In this document: in pieces, positions 2,404-60,953 of the stretch | Layout: the number at the start of each line of letters is the position of its first letter | Numbering within the stretch: position 1 is the first letter of the stretch | Source of the DNA: Sporopachydermia quercuum | Lineage: Eukaryota | Reading direction: 5' to 3' | Length of the DNA: 64,000 nt | Assembly (NCBI GenBank): GCA_001599295.1 | Contig: BCGN01000008.1 | Coordinates: 186,001-250,000 of the forward strand | The notes under the pieces: model-generated | The model's database searches: none | The model's input: the letters and a program-made list of their open reading frames with translations, nothing else | Told to the model about the DNA's origin: nothing | Made by a program: the position numbers and the translations under genes

Positions 2404-3646
2404 AATGCAGTTCAGATTAGCAAATCAATGCAAATGTGTGCTTTCAGTATGAATATATGAACCGACATAGCAGTATCGCTGATACTAAATAAATAAAAGT
2501 TGTGAAGTAGCTGCAATCATGTATTCCATAGGTACTTGGTGGCCGATTGGTATTATATCTTTGGTGATAAAAACGGATGATGACAATCTGTATTGTATCT
2601 AAATACCACTTTGTGGTGTCACAATACCCCGAAATAGTTTCAAATGTAAGATACAGGCTGAACCAAACACGTAAACACCCAAAACAACAAGAAAAACAAA
2701 TGTAAGAATTCAACAAGCTTAGCAGCCAGCAAAGGTAAAAATATACAAACAAAAGAACTCGTATGATTGCGTAAAATGTATACGTCTGACACCATAAATA
2801 ACTTCCCTATGATCACTTGACGCTGGATGTCCAAATTGTTCAAGGGAAGATGTTCAAACAGCTTGACACACCAAGAGAAGCAGAACAAGCTGACAACCTC
2901 ACTGAACAAGTAACAACTTCCAACAAAATCCACTTTCTTATTTATCTTCAGGCTTTTCAATTTGATTATATTAACAACCTCTGATGTGCAAACACCCTTT
3001 TTTTGCAGATCGAATTTAACGGTAAATGATAAGGAAATGGAGTCATTATTAATAAGGCCACCGCAAGCCACTTCGCATCTCACCATTGAAATCGTTTTTG
3101 TCACACGAATATTAATTATATCAAGTCTCACTATGCATGCATACCTCATTTGAAGCGAGACTTGAATTCTGCTTGGGTATCTAACATCCGGGTAAGGTTC
3201 CATTAAAGTTATGTGCACAGAACAAAATTTTCACCTTAAACAGGCATTATGCGCAAGATACAATAATAACATGCATTTATATGCATTAAAATCATCACAT
3301 GTATATATATAGCTATGTACAATTAATGCATGAATCCCTCATTTTTCAACAGAAACAGGTTTTCATTGGCAAATTCACAGGTGTATGTCATATTCACTAA
3401 AGGAAAATTGTCCTTTGGTGTTGAAAGAAGGAGCCAGTATATCACCACCAAGAGACACTAGAATATTATAAATAGCTAATCACAAGAGTCTATCGTAATG
3501 CAATATTAGGCACAAGTTAATTTTGATCAGGAAGACAGTATAGTATACCGATAAAGATTTGTCATATCACTAGTGACGAACATAATCATACAACACCAAA
3601 GAATACATCCCATTGATCATCAACTACAGAACCGAGAAATATCAAA

Positions 3647-10988: not shown

Positions 10989-12227
10989 TGTTGGTGATTC
11001 TATATATTTATAGTAAAGAAAATACTCAATGACAGTCAAAGTAGTGCTGATTTTAACTGAATGGTATTTGATGAAGTAATCTTCTAGTAAATTTTCTATT
11101 ACAATACTTTTCAAGCTTTTGTTTAATTAATCAATCATTAGTTTGATTAATTGATGGATTGATTGGTATATATAATAGGAAAGATCGAAATACTTTTCTG
11201 CATAATAGGTAGAAACAAGATGAGTAATTTGATAGTAGATGAAGGAAAGTACGGTTTGTGATATCGGCAGATTTGACAATTTGAAATATTCTAGGGAATA
11301 AAGCCTAGAAAGTGAAAAATGTCAGACACCCCTGAGAGTACGTAGTGATGTACGGTAAGAAAAATGACAAAATAGTAGGACATGGGATAAAAAGGATGAA
11401 TGATGAGATGAAAAGTGAGAACCCTGAGAAGAGATTGCATTAGATTCGCTTCACTGTCTGTTAGGCAGGAGTTTATTTGAGTAATGTGACTATATGATGA
11501 CTTTGACGCTTGAAATACAGTGAGACATGGATTGAGATCATCCCTGTTGGTATTTTTGTATGATCTTGTTTCATAAATACTCCAACTACTGTTTCTCACC
11601 GTTACATTTGAATGTAAAGAATACAAATGTAATAGTTTAATGAATGAGAAATAACCAATATGATTATGGAGATGGAATAAATGAAGATGACATGTCACAT
11701 TGATCAATCGTGACAATATATAACCATTCTTGTACCATCAACAATACATTAATTTTCCCTATAAAACTCGCACAATGGTCCGCAATTAGATCAATTATAC
11801 CCATATAAATATTTAACTATTCATCTAGAAAACGCTTGCTATAACCATTGCTATTGTTCCTCTCTCATACTAATTATCAGCAATCCATTGAGCTTTTATC
11901 TTGACCCTTCATGTCATATAATCAATGTCTTGTCATCGCGATTTCCCTTACCTTTGACAGACAGACATTTTGTCACATCATGGCTCTTCAATGTGAGTCA
12001 TAATATAATCATACTTAATTTCCTTTTACAACAACCACTAATTATAACCGGATAGAAAAAAGTCTGTAAGGTAAACCTATACATAAAACGTATCCACAGT
12101 TTGCTAAAACAACTATTAAATATCGAATCAAACCGTCTCTTACATTTTAGTCAGATTTACCATATATTTTCTCAAGTTAATCATTGCATTATGGTGCCCT
12201 CAAGCAAACCGTTGCGTACCGTGTCAT

Positions 12228-12416
12228 ATTCACGCCATGTCAGGTATTCGAACTGTCGAAATAATTCTTTTTAGGGCTGGATCATGTTTTAGTTCCTGAT
12301 ATGTGAGAGAACAATAGTTGCCCATCTGTTACTCCCACTTAAATTTTGATCATATCCGGTAATTCCTAAGATAGGTAGATCGGATATGAAGGCTTCCATC
12401 GGTATTTAAGACATTG
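12228..12416 (+). ncRNA. Candidate box H/ACA snoRNA (target unassigned)
   Basis: Long hairpin 12228-12307, H-box-like AGAACA 12308-12313, second hairpin 12338-12410, then ACA 12411-12413 plus 3 nt. The wobble pairs are G.U on the + strand. Confidence 0.5.
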
Positions 12417-13324
12417 GATCAATTAAATAGGTAATTCCTTAATTCCTCTTCATAGTAAAACTTTATGTGTTGTAGGGAACACCGCATGTTCTGACATTTT
12501 TTTCAGAAGCAACACAGTCAATAAATATGTCTTTATCCATTACAAGGGCAAGAAAACAACAATCAAAACCGGAAAATTACTGCAGGAAATGAAATTTGTT
12601 TTGCTCAAGTTTTATTGTAGTCAAGCTTTTATAATGTCATTTTAATGGTACTTTATTGTTGGTTTATTGATATTGTATTTTTGTAAGCCGAGGGCCAGAA
12701 GCAATGATTGAAGCAATGATTTAAAGTTTCGTAAGTGCGCCAATCATACATCTATTTTTCCGGTTAACTCACCATATATTATGAGCTTTCTGACGAACAA
12801 GCCAGTTTAAATGAAGAGAAACAAATACCAATGAAAATGAGAACGAGACTTCACGAATGATGAAATATGAATGGAGACCAATTCAAATCACTTATGGAAT
12901 TTTCGGTGTACATTTATGGGAAATTACTTCTGGCACTTGGAAGTAATGCTCTTATCATCTACCAAACAATTGACTTATCAAATCATTGACACTTTACAAC
13001 GGCTTTCTTCTATTATCACAAGTCAAACAAAACCACCATAACCATTGCCTCTCAAAATGTCGCTCATTTTGCGATCCGTGACTTGAATTAATTCTTTCTG
13101 TCTGTCCTGTCCTCTTGATTGAACAAAACATAATACGAAAATTCACTACACATATTCAAAACTCACTCCACGTCTCCTTTCAGTAGTTTTTTATATCCTA
13201 ATTTCAACTCTGCGCCACATTGTGGCATTGACTTACTCTTAGTTCCACTTTTAGTAAAACACGTTGAACTTTAATTTGTCAACGGTCTTACTCCCAATTC
13301 GGACATTCAACGTCCCAAGTTTCT

Positions 13325-13372
13325 TTCTAGAATCTTCCAGTACCTTCTCATACTTTCTAGTCCATTCAAGAA
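13325..13372. promoter_or_regulatory. Extended heat shock element (Hsf1 array)
   Basis: Perfect TTCtaGAAtcTTC at 13325-13337, further TTC at 13345, 13355 and 13365 in 10-bp phase, closing GAA at 13370. TATAAATA at 13492-13499 lies upstream of the sHsp-like gene. Confidence 0.85.
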
Positions 13373-13699
13373 CTATCTTTATCAATAGAAATTGCCTGTT
13401 TCAGATTCTATCATTATCTCACCAAAGGTAGTTTATGCTATCGCGATAAATATATTGCCTTCCACTTAGTAATCACTATTATGATAAACCGTATAAATAA
13501 ACGCGTTGATACCTATTTTCGACAAACTTGGTTAACATTCTTGTTGCTATTGCATTATCAATAGAAAAGATCAACTTGCATACAATCAAGAGATCTTAAC
13601 TAATAGAAACAAACAATACATTAATTCAAATCAAATTAAATCAAATTAAACGATACGAATAGTAATTTGATAATAACATACTAAGCACAACAAACGGAA

Positions 13700-51073: not shown

Positions 51074-51128
<55 letters not shown>

Positions 51129-56665: not shown

Positions 56666-57905
56666 ATGTTTCGAAACTTCTCTAATAGTATTTCAAAACG
56701 AGCTTTCTCTGTTGCATCAATCGCTAAATCGAAGGCTCCTTTAGCATTTACCTTCGAGTATGTAAATAAAATGGGGAGAGAAATATTATCAACGACGTTT
56801 GCCTAAATGTTGAATTTTTTTTTATATCATCTTTAGGACTGATGTACTAACTGAGCTTCCTGAAAACAGTATCGATGGTGTGTTGATCCGCGGTTCAAAA
56901 GGATTGACGTACGGAACAGAAGCTTTGAAACTGCTAAAACAAAACAATGTTCCGTTTATTTTACTGACCAACGGCGGGGGNAAAAAGGAATCCGAAAGAG
57001 CTGAACAACTAACCGATTTACTTAGTGTAGAGATTAGCCCAGAGCAATTGGTTCAATCTCATACACCTGTCAAAAAGTTTAAGAATACGTATAACAGAGT
57101 ATTGGTAGTTGGTGGACCATCGGACAAATGCCGTTACGTTGCAGAAGACTATGGTTTTAAAGACGTTGTTATTGCTGCAGATATTGTGAAGACAAATCCA
57201 AAAATTTGGCCTTTCCATCGATATCAGCCCAATGAATTAGAGCAATGGGGAAGAGAGAGAGATTTCTATAATGAAAGGGGACTTGCGGAAGGAAAAATTG
57301 ATGCTATATTTGTTTTCAATGACTCCCGAGATATCGGTACTGATTCACAGATAATATTGGATCTTTTGTTGTCGCAGCATGGCCATTTAGGAACCAGAAG
57401 AGATATACATAAATATCACTTTGACAACGAGTCAGACTACAGAAGATTGATCGATGAACCGAGCATTCCAATTCTATTTACCAACCAGGACTTTTTGTGG
57501 GCCAACGACTTTCCATTACCAAGGTTTGGTCAAGGAGCCTTCAAAATGATAATTGAAAGACTGTACGAGGCCGCCACAGGTGGAGGGAAATTAGTATCTA
57601 CCACATATGGCAAGCCATTCAAGGTTACTTATGAATATGCTCACGAGGTATTGAAAGAATGGGCTGTGAGCCAACATGGGTATACAGTTGATGAGGCTAA
57701 AGCACTTTCAAATATTTTCATGGTTGGTGATAATCCAGAATCTGATATCTTAGGTGCTAATTTATATGGATGGAACAGCATTCTCCTGAGAACAGGGGTA
57801 TTCAAAGATGAGGACCTTCCCATTTTGCCAAAAGAGAAGAAACCCAAATACCTATTCAATAATGTTCAAGAAGCTATTGTAGAAATTCTTAAAACCCATC
57901 TATAG
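56666..57905 (+). CDS. Mitochondrial HAD-IIA hydrolase (YKR070W/HDHD5-CECR5 family), 2 exons
   Basis: Exons 56666-56757 and 56870-57905. Presequence MFRNFSNSISKR. Motif I AFTFD|IDGVL is split by the intron; LLTNGG, GKP, MVGDNPESDI.GAN follow. One N at 56981. Confidence 0.92.
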
Positions 57906-58601
57906 CATAGATATTTGACACATATAGAAGCTGCCTACTATAGATATTCAAGCATAGAAAGTATAGAAATAAATTAATATACTTACCACAAAATGCAAGT
58001 GATTAAGTATTCATATTCAGTAATGACTAGCATCAAACTATGAGTAATTAAATTGTACAATGAAATAAAAATCAATTATCAATGGCTCATTTTGTCCAGG
58101 AGCAAAAATCGAACAAAAAACTAAGAGCAGGGAAAAAGTTGATCAAAAACCAGAAACTTCTTTAAAATCAGCTGAGTCATGTTATTTATGCAAAAGATCA
58201 AATCAAAGAAAACAGGGTGATGGAAGCAATGCCTAAGCAATTATTCAGTAATGAACCAATCCATGATCTACTTCAATCATCTCTCTCAAATGATATAAAG
58301 TCACAGTCTAAGCAGCAAACACATTGGCCATAAGTCATGTAATACAGACACTCTCAGGCGAAGCTAGATTCTCTTATTCCTATAACATGAAGCAAAACCA
58401 ATAGCCTAATAAAACAAATCGAAACATATTAGCTAATCTCAGTTGCAACTCCGAACTCTACAAATCTATATAATAATGATGTTATCCGCAACACTAGAAG
58501 ATGACTTCGTGATAGTTTTGACTGATAATGCGAATAGAACTACCAATACTGTTTAAAGTGTGTTCAAACCCAGAATATTGATCAGAGTATTATTTCCAAA
58601 T

Positions 58602-58791
58602 AGCTGACCAGCATGTTTCCCCGTTCTGCAATTTCAGTTCCTTGACCCGATTCTCTGATGGCTATGTAATTGGCGCAATATATAGTATAGAATACTATAT
58701 ATTACCCGAGTCGTTGCTCATTAGCTTGGGGGAATTCGGGAGATGATAATCGCCCGAGGGGTAGTCGGTCAGTGATGTCAGCAGGTCAGTT
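58602..58791. ncRNA. Unidentified structured RNA element next to the stop codon of the AN1 zinc-finger gene
   Basis: Five nested helices plus a possible crossing helix (see findings); locally GC-rich relative to the flanks. Confidence 0.5.
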
Positions 58792-58794
58792 GAG

Positions 58795-59058
58795 CTACAC
58801 TTTAGATGCAACAGTTTGCTCTGATTGAAGCTTTAAAGCATTTCGCTCGTGTAATTCTTCTTTACAAGATTGTAAGCCTGAACAGTTGTGGTTCTCAAGA
58901 AGTCTATGCTTTGAGCAAAAGTGACCTTCGCAGAATGCACAATCACCAACAATCCGCAGTGGAGCTGATGTACATGACTTCAATGAACATCTCTTCTTAC
59001 TTGTCTTCTTTTTAGGAATAGCGATGTTGCTTTGTTGGTTGGAAATTGTTTCACCCAT
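58795..59058 (-). CDS. TMC1: AN1-type zinc-finger protein, Tmc1-like
   Basis: RC...SC...PLRIVGDC.FC.GHFCSKHRLLENH.C.GL..CK. Lies near ETT1 as YOR052C does in S. cerevisiae. PACE-like GGTGGCAC at 59363-59370. Confidence 0.85.
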   Translation of the reverse strand: MGETISNQQSNIAIPKKKTSKKRCSLKSCTSAPLRIVGDCAFCEGHFCSKHRLLENHNCSGLQSCKEELHERNALKLQSEQTVASKV

Positions 59059-60953
59059 ATTGTTCTGTCTATAATTATCGTAATTGTATCAGTAAAAATA
59101 ACAGGCTTATTCAAGAGTTGACTGCAGCTGTTTTATTTTTTTATTCTTGATAGTCTAATTAGCCTTGTATTTTATCTTCTTTTTTTTTGCTTTTATCTTT
59201 TTACAATCAGGACTCCAAATCCGACGTTTCCTTTTTGTTTTTTCCTTCAATATAATCAAAAAGCAATAATAAAACTAAACTAATAGCTTATATCATATAA
59301 CAAGCCATTTATATTACTCTACAGTTAACAACATAGAAACAGTATCGAAACAAGAACAACTCGGTGGCACATCCATTATTATATACGAAGGTTAACTTGA
59401 ACCTGGTGATACCCACAGAACAGAAGTGCAACGCCTAGGAGTTTCTGTGACTAAAATGTGTTGCAGATTTGTACGTAAGAAAAATGTTGAGATTACTCAT
59501 TCGGAAATGGTCATCAATGCATGAGTGGTGAAAGGAAGTTCGGACAGGTTGAAAACTGGATGGGCAGTGGAAAGTTGTCCGGGAAGTATAAAGGGATGGT
59601 AGGTAATAATATAATGGAGAGAGAAATAGAAGGATTGACTAAGAGTAGGCGGATGAATGAATTTCAGTATCATGTAACAGAAGTAATAGGTCGTTAGAGG
59701 GATATTTTTGATTATTTATTTAACCAAAACATTTGAAAAACAAATCATCTTATGAGTAATGCAGTATCCGGAGGATGCGAAGATATTAATCAAACATTAG
59801 TGAATGAACAGCAGATCGATAAACACCTTGTCAGTAAGAATCTTGGATCGCGGGAAACGATAATCGAACTCTCGGGACAGTCGAGTAATTACCGTTAATG
59901 GTCAACTATATTTCAAGCAATCTCTTTATAAAATGCTTGTCCTGTTGCGTGATGCAGTTAACCTGCATGCCAATCCTAACTACAGTAGAATATATATGTT
60001 CCATCATCATTGATACTACAGACGATTTCTCCATAAACAACACATCTTAACAAATCATCTATTTATTCGTATCTTCATAATTTATCTGAAGATCTAATTC
60101 CACCTTTTTCCTATATTCTTATTATCTCAAAGAAGCTTTCTTTTCACTCCAGACACTCTATTCAAAATATCGCAGAACATTTTCCCCTGTTTCGTGAAGT
60201 AATTCTGCGTCTGAATTCATCATTGTTTCCAACCTAAATTACCCGAAATGAGATATGAAGTGTATACGCAAACAGTAACTCTAATTAGGCAACTATTTCT
60301 TATCATTATTGATAAGGAAACAAACGGAAGAATAATAGGTGATCAGAACAGTTTGGAATAAGAAGGAAAACACAATGAAAGAGAAATCAGGATTATTAAC
60401 GGATCGAGAAGTAATCGCTATTTCTGAAATTTGTAGATGTTGTTAATACCATTATTATTTCATTTATTGAGTATAAGGAAGTATGGTTAAATGTGACTTT
60501 ACGGTAGATGGAAGAAGGATCTAGGTGTCGGGCATAGTGTAAAGTGTGATTGGATCATCGACTTGTGGTAGCGTGTGGCATATAAAGTATGTCCACTATG
60601 ATAATGATTTGATAACCTGCTATTAATTCTTTTTTATTATTCCTGCTTGGTCTAGTTTATTAGATTCAGATAATATTTCATTATTCAGTATTATTAAGCT
60701 TTCCTTAAATTTTACAAATTGGCAATACTTAAAAATCAATATTTTATTGTATTACCATAGTCCACACGATAATTCCTATAAATAATAATAAAAAGAGTTA
60801 CATATATAAGTAATACCAAACGACAAAAAAGCCGTTATTTTCTAAATCCATACCCGTTCCAAAAGGAGAAACATTAACCATTCACCTTCTGCTTCACTTT
60901 AATTTCAAAATATTATACACACCAATATACATCAATTTCTATTCCTAAATTTG

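Follow-up and report, generated by a model that had tools for sequence, protein, structure and literature searches.

A GC-rich structured island behind the stop codon of a TMC1-like gene in a budding yeast: a possible orphan RNA

Introduction

Directly behind the stop codon of a TMC1-like gene lies an island of ~190 bases which is rich in GC and can fold into several hairpins. Does this island give rise to an RNA of its own, does it belong to the mRNA of the neighbouring gene, or does it have no function as RNA? A sequence-only reading had proposed an unrecognised ncRNA or a regulator acting as 3'UTR or antisense RNA. This is still the most reasonable class of explanation, but the specific ideas attached to it (a pseudoknot, an RNase P/MRP topology, and a strand assignment from G.U pairs) were not supported. 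Our best, tentative reading of the island is an orphan structured RNA, for which a + strand ncRNA is slightly more likely than an element of the TMC1 3'UTR. In the following, the window is the whole stretch of 64,000 nucleotides that was analysed, and positions refer to it.

Results

Location and composition of the island

Island, 58602..58797, strand not assigned: the whole GC-rich structured feature.

TMC1-like gene, 58795..59058, - strand: an ORF of 87 aa for an AN1 zinc-finger protein, the stop codon of which abuts the island.

CTGAC words, 58768..58789, - strand: three copies in a segment of 22 nt that lies immediately 3' of the stop codon.

TATATAA, 58467-58473, + strand: a candidate promoter element, judged by its sequence, 129 nt upstream of the island for a + strand RNA.

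TTACCCG, 58702..58708, + strand: a putative Reb1-type site at the foot of an A/T-rich hairpin.

The TMC1-like ORF matches Pfam zf-AN1 with an E value of 2.5e-13 and has 51 homologues. Its TAG stop at 58795-58797 (- strand) is the edge of the island. In tblastn comparisons, the C-terminus ...(T/Q)xA(S/N)KV ends at the same point in 7/7 orthologues, with exactly ...EQTVASKV in four of the seven. Hence, the stop codon is genuine, as all compared orthologues end there with a homologous C-terminus. The element thus begins at the stop on the mRNA strand and the three CTGAC words come next, as had been noticed before; the TATATAA word reported near 58467 is likewise present.

The window 58601-58800 has a GC content of 0.465, which is rank 1 among 906 non-coding 200-nt windows (mean 0.340, sd 0.037). 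For the 196 nt 3' of the stop codon, GC is 0.459, compared with a mean of 0.309 (sd 0.035, max 0.388) for 25 other ORF 3' flanks. The island is thus 4 sd above these flanks, which we counted in favour of a + strand ncRNA. It is situated in a gap of 890 bp separating two convergent genes. As such a gap probably exceeds the need of two 3' UTRs, it was also counted for a separate + strand RNA. All reading frames of the island contain stops and no frame exceeds 54 codons, so a relic of an ORF was not found in it.

Contigs from two sequencing runs of the same organism cover the island once each (at least 80% identity). Within the 64-kb window, the 22-mer that opens the island is unique and a second island copy was not found. 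One copy in these contigs and in the window does not fit a dispersed repeat or MITE. For two runs of other organisms, the contigs matched one piece of 50 nt within the ORF in the first case and nothing in the second.

The CTGAC word occurs 81 times in the window on both strands, and 3/81 are inside the island; a rough Poisson estimate gives ~0.01 for three copies in 22 nt anywhere in the window. TTACCCG, which we take to be a Reb1-type site by its consensus, occurs six times in the 64 kb against 1.87 expected, a number reached in 0/100 shuffles. Four CCCGA words are distributed over both strands within 58646-58757. A scan for bacterial-type promoters and terminators gave no terminator-like site, with models that are bacterial while the host is a yeast.

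Folding of the island

All six helices listed by the sequence-only reading are present in the sequence. They are described here together with the long arm predicted by folding of the + strand.

Outer (terminal) stem, 58602..58612 with 58781..58791, + strand: This stem has 10 pairs and an A.A mismatch. Its pair probability is ~0.3 in the 196-nt + strand fold. When 271 nt of the + strand are folded (z -2.40), it is part of the MFE structure as well as of the centroid.

Second stem, 58642..58652 with 58763-58772, + strand: The stem has 10 pairs and a bulged C and is weakly supported, with a pair probability of at most 0.03 on the + strand and 0.00 on the - strand. As this stem and the outer one both use the repeated GGTCAG words, they are in competition.

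P5-like stem, 58655-58662 with 58716-58724, + strand: Eight pairs are formed, with a pair probability of 0.94-0.96 on the + strand versus 0.03-0.06 on the - strand.

A/T-rich hairpin, 58677..58703, strand not assigned: This is a perfect 12-bp hairpin with loop AGA (+) or TCT (-) and TATATA in each arm. Its pair probability is ~1.0 on both strands. Among 13 local inverted repeats reported for the 64 kb, it is the only perfect one of at least 12 nt with separate arms.

GC hairpin, 58735..58758, strand not assigned: It consists of nine pairs and an A.G mismatch, with a GATA loop on the + strand, and is formed with a probability of 0.94 on the + strand and 0.33 on the - strand.

Crossing helix, 58616..58623 with 58727-58734, + strand: The eight pairs exist, but the helix is unsupported, as the + strand MFE structure pairs 58619-22 with 58758-61 and not with the proposed partner.

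Long irregular arm, 58637..58735, + strand: Capped by the A/T-rich hairpin, this arm is found in both MFE structure and centroid, with the segments 58637-41/58731-35, 58646-50/58726-30, 58655-62/58716-24, and 58664-75/58705-14.

The lowest three raw MFEs among 746 non-coding strand-windows are all at the island. For 58602-58797, the folding z-score is -2.66 on the + strand and -2.28 on the - strand, values which are reached by 23/746 and 44/746 non-coding strand-windows, respectively. The best local score of -3.39 was obtained on the - strand for 58654-58849, a segment that includes the end of the ORF; 0/200 shuffles were as good. A z-score near zero had been named as an argument against the element. 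The scores obtained (-2.3 to -3.4) place the island in the top 1-6% of non-coding windows. The island counts as exceptional for this window on account of its GC rank, its MFEs, the 12-bp hairpin, and the GC content as a 3' flank.

On the + strand (196 nt), the MFE is -64.6 and the centroid -63.1 kcal/mol, and the ensemble is well defined. The - strand has an MFE of -53.7 and a centroid of -46.4 kcal/mol with a diffuse ensemble, and the helices of the sequence-only reading have pair probabilities of only 0.00-0.37 there, the A/T-rich hairpin excepted. The nested part of the proposed six-helix model amounts to -44.0 kcal/mol on the + strand, which is 20.6 kcal/mol above the MFE and less stable than the mean shuffle MFE (-53.8). 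The crossing helix as an isolated duplex would contribute ~ -10.6 kcal/mol, too little to close this gap. Hence, the pseudoknotted model is not favoured thermodynamically. We also considered a decayed DNA palindrome. This was rejected, as the arms of the island minus the 12-bp core are no more complementary than shuffled sequence (849/2000 shuffles reach the score).

Assignment of the strand

The sequence-only reading had counted about seven wobbles that are G.U on the + strand only. Seven pairs of its helices are indeed G.T on this strand (7:0), and five helix positions become A.C mismatches on the - strand. In an alignment that favours neither strand, however, the ratio is only 6:3. As the 7:0 count came from helices that had been chosen on the + strand, the argument from G.U pairs is much weaker than it seemed.

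We counted for the + strand that three helices have pair probabilities of 0.94-1.0 (versus 0.03-0.33 on the - strand, except for the A/T-rich hairpin). Against it, we counted that the 6:3 ratio is not significant and that the z-score is equal or better on the - strand (-3.39, 58654-58849). The island edge coincides with the stop codon of a - strand gene, which is more natural for a 3'UTR element and also argues against a + strand RNA.

Search for known RNA families and for related loci

Comparison with Rfam on both strands, which had been suggested as a check, matched no family. At the gathering score, the whole window gave 0 matches. With E <=10 for 58200-59200 and 58580-58820 (241 nt) on both strands, only chance-level matches were obtained (snoZ30 with 17 bits, CRISPR-DR56 with 16 bits, GABA3, and ZEB2_AS1_2). 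ARAGORN found 0 tRNA or tmRNA genes in the 64 kb. Scanning 57950-58900 on both strands for H/ACA snoRNAs (hairpin-ANANNA-hairpin-ACA, 3 nt from the end, threshold -12 kcal/mol per hairpin) yielded 0 candidates. The same region was searched for C/D snoRNAs, defined as a C box RUGAUGA and a D box CUGA joined by a terminal stem. Two weak candidates resulted, one of them outside the island. The other, at 58740-58824 on the + strand, overlaps it, with a mismatch in the C box GAGATGA and a D box inside the TMC1-like ORF. No boxes flank the terminal stem of the island itself, and an Sm-like site was not seen by eye on either strand of the island.

Several further readings were dropped by eye because their defining motifs are missing and Rfam gave no match: LTR, intron, readthrough, SECIS, hammerhead, SRP, Y-RNA, and U-snRNA. 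The word ATACTTACC at 57981, which we take to resemble the 5' end of U1, was also considered. It was dropped, as its surroundings are AT-rich and unstructured and no U1 model matched; by rough estimate, ~0.5 words of this type are expected by chance.

SnoRNA and snRNA genes appear as GC islands in AT-rich intergenic DNA. Like the small stable yeast ncRNAs, the island is an intergenic, single-copy GC island of ~190 nt with a terminal stem joining its ends and a TATA word upstream. It differs from them by having neither C/D or H/ACA boxes nor an Sm-like site nor an Rfam family.

For related loci, a metagenome scan with the AN1 alignment gave 336 stretches and 168 relatives, of which 80 loci were kept (best identity 67%). 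All come from distant fungi, since none of the 80 has the Saccharomycotina-type end ...EQTVASKV. Behind these orthologues, nothing resembling the island was found (nhmmer 0 hits; blastn five hits, all with E >=0.2), nor did any of the loci have more than one CTGAC in the first 80 nt of the flank. A 3' flank enriched in GC by at least 0.08 was present in 3/78 usable loci, a count from fungi too distant to be decisive. Titles and abstracts of the literature on TMC1, YOR052C, AN1, and Rpn4 included none concerning a 3'UTR or antisense RNA. An exact look-up of six ORFs of the window in a protein collection matched 0/6. The best match of Sqt1 is only 56% identical, and the lineage has no close sequenced relatives.

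Comparison with RNase P and RNase MRP RNA

On the - strand, the helix order had been said to mimic that of RNase P/MRP RNA. The order can be drawn, but several defining features fail. Read in this way, the island would be a miniature RNase P/MRP-like RNA consisting of the catalytic core only (P1, P2, P3, the P4 pseudoknot, P5, and CR-IV-like and CR-V-like joints), with the A/T-rich hairpin replacing the specificity domain, which we consider most improbable. Equally far-fetched is the wider claim of a third RNase P/MRP-type RNA in a deep-branching budding yeast, a core-only pseudoknot of ~190 nt from the 3' end of a stress-gene transcript.

The likeness is mainly one of order. The - strand reads P1-P2-P3-(GAA)-P4...P5'-AGAGAAT-P2'-(19 nt ending GCAGAA)-P4'-CAT-P1', and E. 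coli rnpB has AGATGAAT immediately 5' of P2' (before GACTGT), ACAGAA before the 3' strand of P4, and 2 nt before P1'. In comparison with RNase P of bacterial type A and archaeal type T, the island can be drawn in the order P1-P2-P3-P4...P2'-P4'-P1', where P4 crosses P2. It has AG...A(A)T as a joint before P2', CAGAA before the P4 3' strand, 2-3 nt separating P4' from P1', and, as in type T, a size of ~190 nt. It differs in that several universal positions are missing and in its eukaryotic nuclear context. With RNase MRP RNA (NME1/RMRP), it has in common a CCCC/GGGG core of P4, the AGAGAA joint, and a spacer at the position of P19, but its P3 is a plain 24-nt hairpin without internal loop and RF00030 is unmatched. 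The internal loop of MRP P3 is the binding site of Pop6/Pop7. AGAGAA fits the six-nucleotide CR-IV of MRP (A1, G2, A7) described in PMC13184271 if the T is counted into P2', and the spacer between P2' and P4' has the position of the eukaryotic P19. Besides the six-nucleotide CR-IV, the MRP RNA of that paper has a 3-bp P5 that abuts CR-I and a P8 capped by a 5'-GARAR-3' pentaloop (PMC13184271). RNase P RNAs lacking the S domain are known as archaeal type T, which retains the universal positions of P4, J2/4, and J15/2 (PMC3579882).

The evidence against this reading is extensive. Models of RNase P (nuclear, bacterial A/B, archaeal, and type T) and MRP gave no match, even with E <=10 on the 241 nt of both strands. 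In RNase P, CR-I and CR-V form P4 with a universally conserved bulged U and GNAANNUC spacing, for example GGAAAGTCCGGG in E. coli rnpB. The corresponding - strand sequence CCGAATTCCCCC allows TTCCCC/GGGGAA, six plain pairs in which the bulged U is not forced. Placed in the E. coli register, the helix would have a C as its bulged base, and AA and TC are one base too close to each other; CR-I, which is GAATTC, is likewise one base short of the GNAANNUC spacing. The sequence-only reading had already stated that CR-I and CR-V are not canonical. At the position of CR-IV (AGNNNNAU-type, 8 nt), AGAGAAT (7 nt) precedes CGGGTCA, a match of low information that was recognised post hoc. CR-II/III are missing, and the P5 strands enclose no more than the 12-bp A/T-rich hairpin plus 26 nt that are unpaired. 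Neither a P8 carrying a GARAR loop nor a 3-bp P5 is present; the P5-like helix has eight pairs and starts 2-3 nt after CR-I. Pair probabilities on the - strand are 0.00 for P2, 0.03-0.06 for P5, and 0.33 for P3, and the model, at -30.7 kcal/mol with another ~ -10.5 from P4, does not surpass the mean shuffle MFE (-43.4). When the island is aligned locally to E. coli rnpB, the similarity does not exceed chance (- strand score 16, 363/500 shuffles; + strand score 20, 52/500). The - strand has no T-run for Pol III termination, and the gene would have to begin at the stop codon of another gene. If true, the RNase P/MRP-like reading would be remarkable; it is poorly supported.

Discussion

We tentatively interpret the island as an orphan, lineage-specific structured RNA of ~190-200 nt, most probably transcribed from the + strand, in antisense orientation to the TMC1-like 3' end; this is a possibility and not yet a probable identification. 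Such an RNA would adopt a Y shape, in which the terminal stem joins the first and the last 11 nt of the island. One arm would be the irregular one of ~100 nt capped by the 12-bp hairpin, the other the 9-bp GC hairpin. Transcription by RNA polymerase II could start from the TATA-containing, AT-rich region upstream, and the terminal stem might protect the ends together with protein bound to the RNA, as is the case for other stable small RNAs of yeast. Since the RNA would be the full complement of the ~195 nt that follow the TMC1-like stop, transcribing it or pairing with it could weaken the 3'-end formation or the stability of the TMC1-like mRNA. The missing snoRNA boxes, Sm-like site, and Rfam family count against such an RNA, as do the + strand z-scores, which 23/746 strand-windows reach, and the shuffle-level complementarity outside the 12-bp core.

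The island may instead be a relic or neutral sequence, i.e., formerly GC-richer DNA left by an ancient insertion or by the decay of a gene, with two hairpins arisen by chance. We regard this as doubtful. The stems other than these hairpins are what any stretch of 200 nt offers, the six-helix model does not reach the stability of shuffled sequence, and the arms outside the 12-bp core show shuffle-level complementarity (849/2000). Of the non-coding windows, 3-6% have equally low z-scores, and neither an Rfam family nor a homologue at the distant fungal loci was found. On the other hand, several independent oddities come together in 190 bp, namely the highest GC value, the lowest MFE, the one perfect hairpin of 12 bp, and the CTGAC cluster, and an unselected GC-rich stretch should decay in a genome of 36% GC. 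No further copy pointing to a mobile element was found, and a relic of an ORF is not evident. A rather unlikely reading is that the island works in cis as a structured 3'UTR on the mRNA of the TMC1-like gene (- strand), where it would govern which poly(A) site is used, how stable the mRNA is, or how this proteotoxic-stress gene is translated. This mRNA necessarily enters the island, as the island starts at the stop codon, and by eye, neither TATATA nor an A-rich signal occurs in the first ~95 nt after the stop, which means that half of the island or more must be part of the mRNA. The best z-score of the region (0/200 shuffles, with the ORF end included) is on the - strand, where windows rank 2 and 10 among 746. 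The 3' flank is unlike the 25 others in GC, and the clustered CTGAC words could be protein-binding sites. The A/T-rich hairpin would sequester two TATATA words, a motif that we take to be the yeast polyadenylation efficiency element. Like structured cis-elements for localisation or stability in yeast 3'UTRs, which form no single family, the island begins at the stop and combines hairpins with a repeated word (CTGAC), but it is far larger and more GC-rich than known yeast examples. GC-rich structured 3'UTRs of ~200 nt are rare in budding yeast, which counts against this reading, as do the weak - strand helices (0.00-0.37, except for the A/T-rich hairpin), the diffuse ensemble, and the five A.C mismatches. 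Flanks of distant orthologues are rarely enriched in GC (3/78 by at least 0.08), a count made indecisive by the distance.

Finally, the island could act at the level of DNA in the convergent gap, as a Reb1-type roadblock or nucleosome-free site or as a GC-rich origin, with the stems being incidental. GC-rich replication origins have been described in some non-Saccharomyces yeasts. The over-represented TTACCCG word, the four CCCGA words, and the site between two convergent genes are consistent with this explanation. A single 7-mer is thin evidence, however, and a protein-binding site explains neither an island of 190 bp nor its terminal stem; we therefore consider it unlikely.

What the island means depends on which of these readings applies. 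A 3'UTR element or a relic would be of local interest only. If a discrete RNA is made, as we tentatively prefer, it would be a structured RNA without family from a budding-yeast lineage without close sequenced relatives. Physically linked as it would be to a conserved stress gene of the Rpn4 type, such an RNA would offer a tractable case of either a new small RNP RNA or a structure-based control of the 3' end of a proteostasis gene.

The island and its gene neighbourhood

With a GC content of 36%, the window is AT-rich budding-yeast nuclear DNA. The GC-rich structured stretch at 58602-58797 (the island) lies inside an 890-bp gap separating two convergent genes.

Genes flanking the island
ending at 57905, + strand: HAD-type hydrolase ORF (Pfam Hydrolase_like, E 5.6e-17)
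58795-59058, - strand: AN1 zinc-finger ORF of 87 aa, the TMC1-like gene (zf-AN1, E 2.5e-13)

The AN1 ORF has 51 homologues, some named Tmc1p by their sources. Because seven orthologues compared by tblastn share its end point and a homologous C-terminus (exactly ...EQTVASKV in four of the seven), its stop at 58795-58797 is judged genuine from sequence, and the island starts exactly behind it. This agrees with the sequence-only reading, which had placed the element right after the stop; the three CUGAC repeats reported to follow were found as three CTGAC words. An N-terminal ubiquitin-like domain is common in TMC1-like orthologues of ~146 aa (Lipomyces, Yarrowia, Tortispora). No exon for it was found in the window by tblastn, and the Kuraishia and Sugiyamaella orthologues likewise do not have it. 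The closest database match of the window's Sqt1 ORF reaches 56% identity, and not one of six window ORFs is matched exactly in the protein collection; by these comparisons the lineage is isolated. None of 80 TMC1-like loci from a metagenome scan (distant fungi, best identity 67%) showed similarity to the island, and none carried the Saccharomycotina C-terminus.

Upstream of the TMC1-like start codon, at a distance of about 305 bp, lies GGTGGCACA (59363-59371, +), which agrees with eight of nine positions of what we take to be the Rpn4/PACE consensus. Such words occur twice in the window (0.40 expected), and this one would fit the gene as a proteasome-stress target. Upstream of the gene, a second GC-rich non-coding patch (59381-59700, GC 0.435) shows very strong G-over-C skew on +, reaching +0.6; 34 nt of it (59601-59634) recur on a further contig from this organism. 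At the island's opposite flank, 75 nt past the HAD-like stop, ATACTTACC (57981-57989, +) has 58004-58010 as its partner in a 7-bp inverted repeat. It is presumably identical to the U1 snRNA 5' end; the U1 model did not match there, and the likeness is probably due to chance. The window further contains a perfect (ATCA)13 microsatellite (51074-51126) and two N bases, one of which (about 56990) gives an X in the HAD-like translation.

Composition and copy number

The island is a genuine feature and an unusual one, with exceptional composition and stability. The GC content of 58601-58800 is 0.465, the highest of 906 windows of 200 nt in non-coding DNA, for which the mean is 0.340 (sd 0.037), and that of the 196 nt behind the stop is 0.459, as compared with a mean of 0.309 (sd 0.035, max 0.388) in 25 other ORF 3' flanks. 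The three lowest raw folding energies of 746 non-coding strand-windows are located here, and the hairpin at 58677-58703 is the sole perfect local inverted repeat of at least 12 nt among 13 reported in the 64 kb. At ≥80% identity, contigs from two same-organism runs cover the island once, and this single copy rules out a dispersed repeat.

Fold and structure model

A pseudoknotted multi-stem RNA had been proposed on the + strand, and the sequence confirms every helix listed for it.

Proposed helices with pair probability on +
58602-58612 with 58781-58791: outer stem, 0.3 in the 196-nt fold, yet part of MFE and centroid in the 271-nt fold
58642-58652 with 58763-58772: second stem, ≤0.03
58655-58662 with 58716-58724: stem, 0.95
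58677-58703: perfect 12-bp AT hairpin, 1.0
58735-58758: GC hairpin, 0.94
58616-58623 with 58727-58734: crossing helix, about -10.6 kcal/mol as isolated duplex

The model built from them is not thermodynamically favoured. Its nested five-helix set gives -44.0 kcal/mol on +, whereas the MFE there is -64.6 and shuffles have an MFE of -53.8 on average, and the crossing helix is insufficient to close the gap to the MFE. The second stem scores low because it rivals the outer stem for repeated GGTCAG words. Outside the 12-bp core, complementarity of the island halves is at shuffle level (849/2000). The structure model is thus less good than the first impression. Pair probabilities, MFE and centroid best support a predicted Y shape, in which a terminal stem carries two arms, one irregular, ~100 nt long and tipped by the AT hairpin, the other the GC hairpin.

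For 58602-58797, the fold z is -2.66 on + (1/200 shuffles as good) and -2.28 on - (4/200). When every non-coding 196-nt window was scanned, with noisy values from 16-25 shuffles per window, 23 and 44 of 746 strand-windows, respectively, reached these levels, and island-local windows ranked 2, 10, 23 and 26 by z. With 200 shuffles, 58654-58849 (-) gave -3.39; the longer 58590-58860 gave -2.02 on - and -2.40 on +.

The window's strongest fold signal lies in a 1.9-kb ORF-free gap (11738-13684), with z -5.3 at 13182 (-) in the scan and -3.66 for 13150-13400 (-) (0/200 shuffles as good). This purine-rich region has several hairpins and no Rfam match at E ≤1; the gap may harbour a long or unclassified ncRNA.

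Strand

All seven wobbles cited in favour of the + strand are indeed G.T there. The helices had been chosen on +, however, and a neutral alignment that sets the left arm against the reverse-complemented right arm, with mismatches weighted alike, gives six G.T(+)-type and three A.C(+)-type. MFE structures contain eight G.U pairs on + and five on -. Centroid and MFE differ by no more than 1.5 kcal/mol on +, whereas on - the centroid is 7.3 kcal/mol higher, so that the predicted + ensemble is better defined, and the proposed helices apart from the AT hairpin have p 0.00-0.37 on -. Pointing toward - are the stop codon as island edge and the best z. At least some of the - strand has to be transcribed as 3'UTR. 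Overall, the balance leans modestly to +.

Known RNA classes and competing readings

A known RNA had been one foreseen outcome, and Rfam gave no family for + or - in searches as permissive as E ≤10 on 241 nt. The island contains no tRNA, no ORF and no H/ACA candidate. For C/D architecture, none of the candidates was credible; one of two weak ones touches the island. In the same gap, 58168-58283 (-) is a weak box C/D candidate by its motifs (C-box-like GAGATGA, CTGA 116 nt downstream, 7-bp A/T-rich terminal stem); on the opposite strand, snoZ30 scores 17.3 bits at 58212-58292, below its gathering score of 50.

The mimicry of RNase P/MRP claimed for the - strand is topological only. The helix order P1-P2-P3-P4...P2'-P4'-P1' is natural for RNase P and can be drawn on this strand; in order and adjacency the elements would then agree with the E. 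coli rnpB sequence used as reference. There, the P2 3' strand comes right after AGATGAAT, the P4 3' strand is preceded by ACAGAA, and P4' and P1' are two bases apart; the island has ...GCCATCAG-AGAGAAT-CGGGTCA-(19 nt ending GCAGAA)-CGGGGAAA-CAT-GCTGGTCAGCT. CR-I and CR-V are non-canonical, as had been noted: the universal bulged U is absent from the six plain pairs that P4 can form, and CR-I spacing is one base shorter than what we take to be the consensus. Roughly eight of 13 signature positions match by hand count, which is not significant given free placement. MRP CR-IV has six nucleotides with A1, G2 and A7 (PMC13184271), and the island AGAGAA would fit if T is assigned to P2'. Archaeal type T RNAs, which have no S-domain, retain the universal P4, J2/4 and J15/2 positions (PMC3579882). 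The island is without a specificity domain, and without the P8 GARAR loop and 3-bp P5 of MRP. RNase P, MRP and type T models did not match it (E ≤10, 241 nt), P2, P5 and P3 have weak pair probabilities on -, and the RNase P-like model energy is no better than the shuffle MFE. Alignment scores against rnpB are no better than chance (52/500 shuffles reach the score on + and 363/500 on -), which also covers AGCTGACCAG, common to the island + strand and the rnpB 5' end. The resemblance does not survive testing, and an RNase P/MRP-like RNA is highly improbable.

A DNA-level element is improbable too. It would draw on TTACCCG, which we take to be a Reb1-type word: it lies at 58702, and also at 3189, 8762, 31908, 47402 and 60239 (six versus 1.87 expected; 0/100 shuffles reach six). 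This excess points to a functional site for a Reb1-like factor in the genome. A cis-acting structure in the TMC1-like 3'UTR, to which the stop-codon edge and the best z on - point, seems unlikely, and a relic without function only slightly less so.

Beyond the directly observed composition, helices, copy number and absence of family membership, an RNA-level function of the island is somewhat favoured. Tentatively, we read it as an independent orphan ncRNA of the + strand. TATATAA, reported near 58467, is present at 58467-58473, and Pol II may transcribe the RNA from this TATA region. The terminal stem would protect its ends, and the transcript would overlap the TMC1-like 3' end in antisense.
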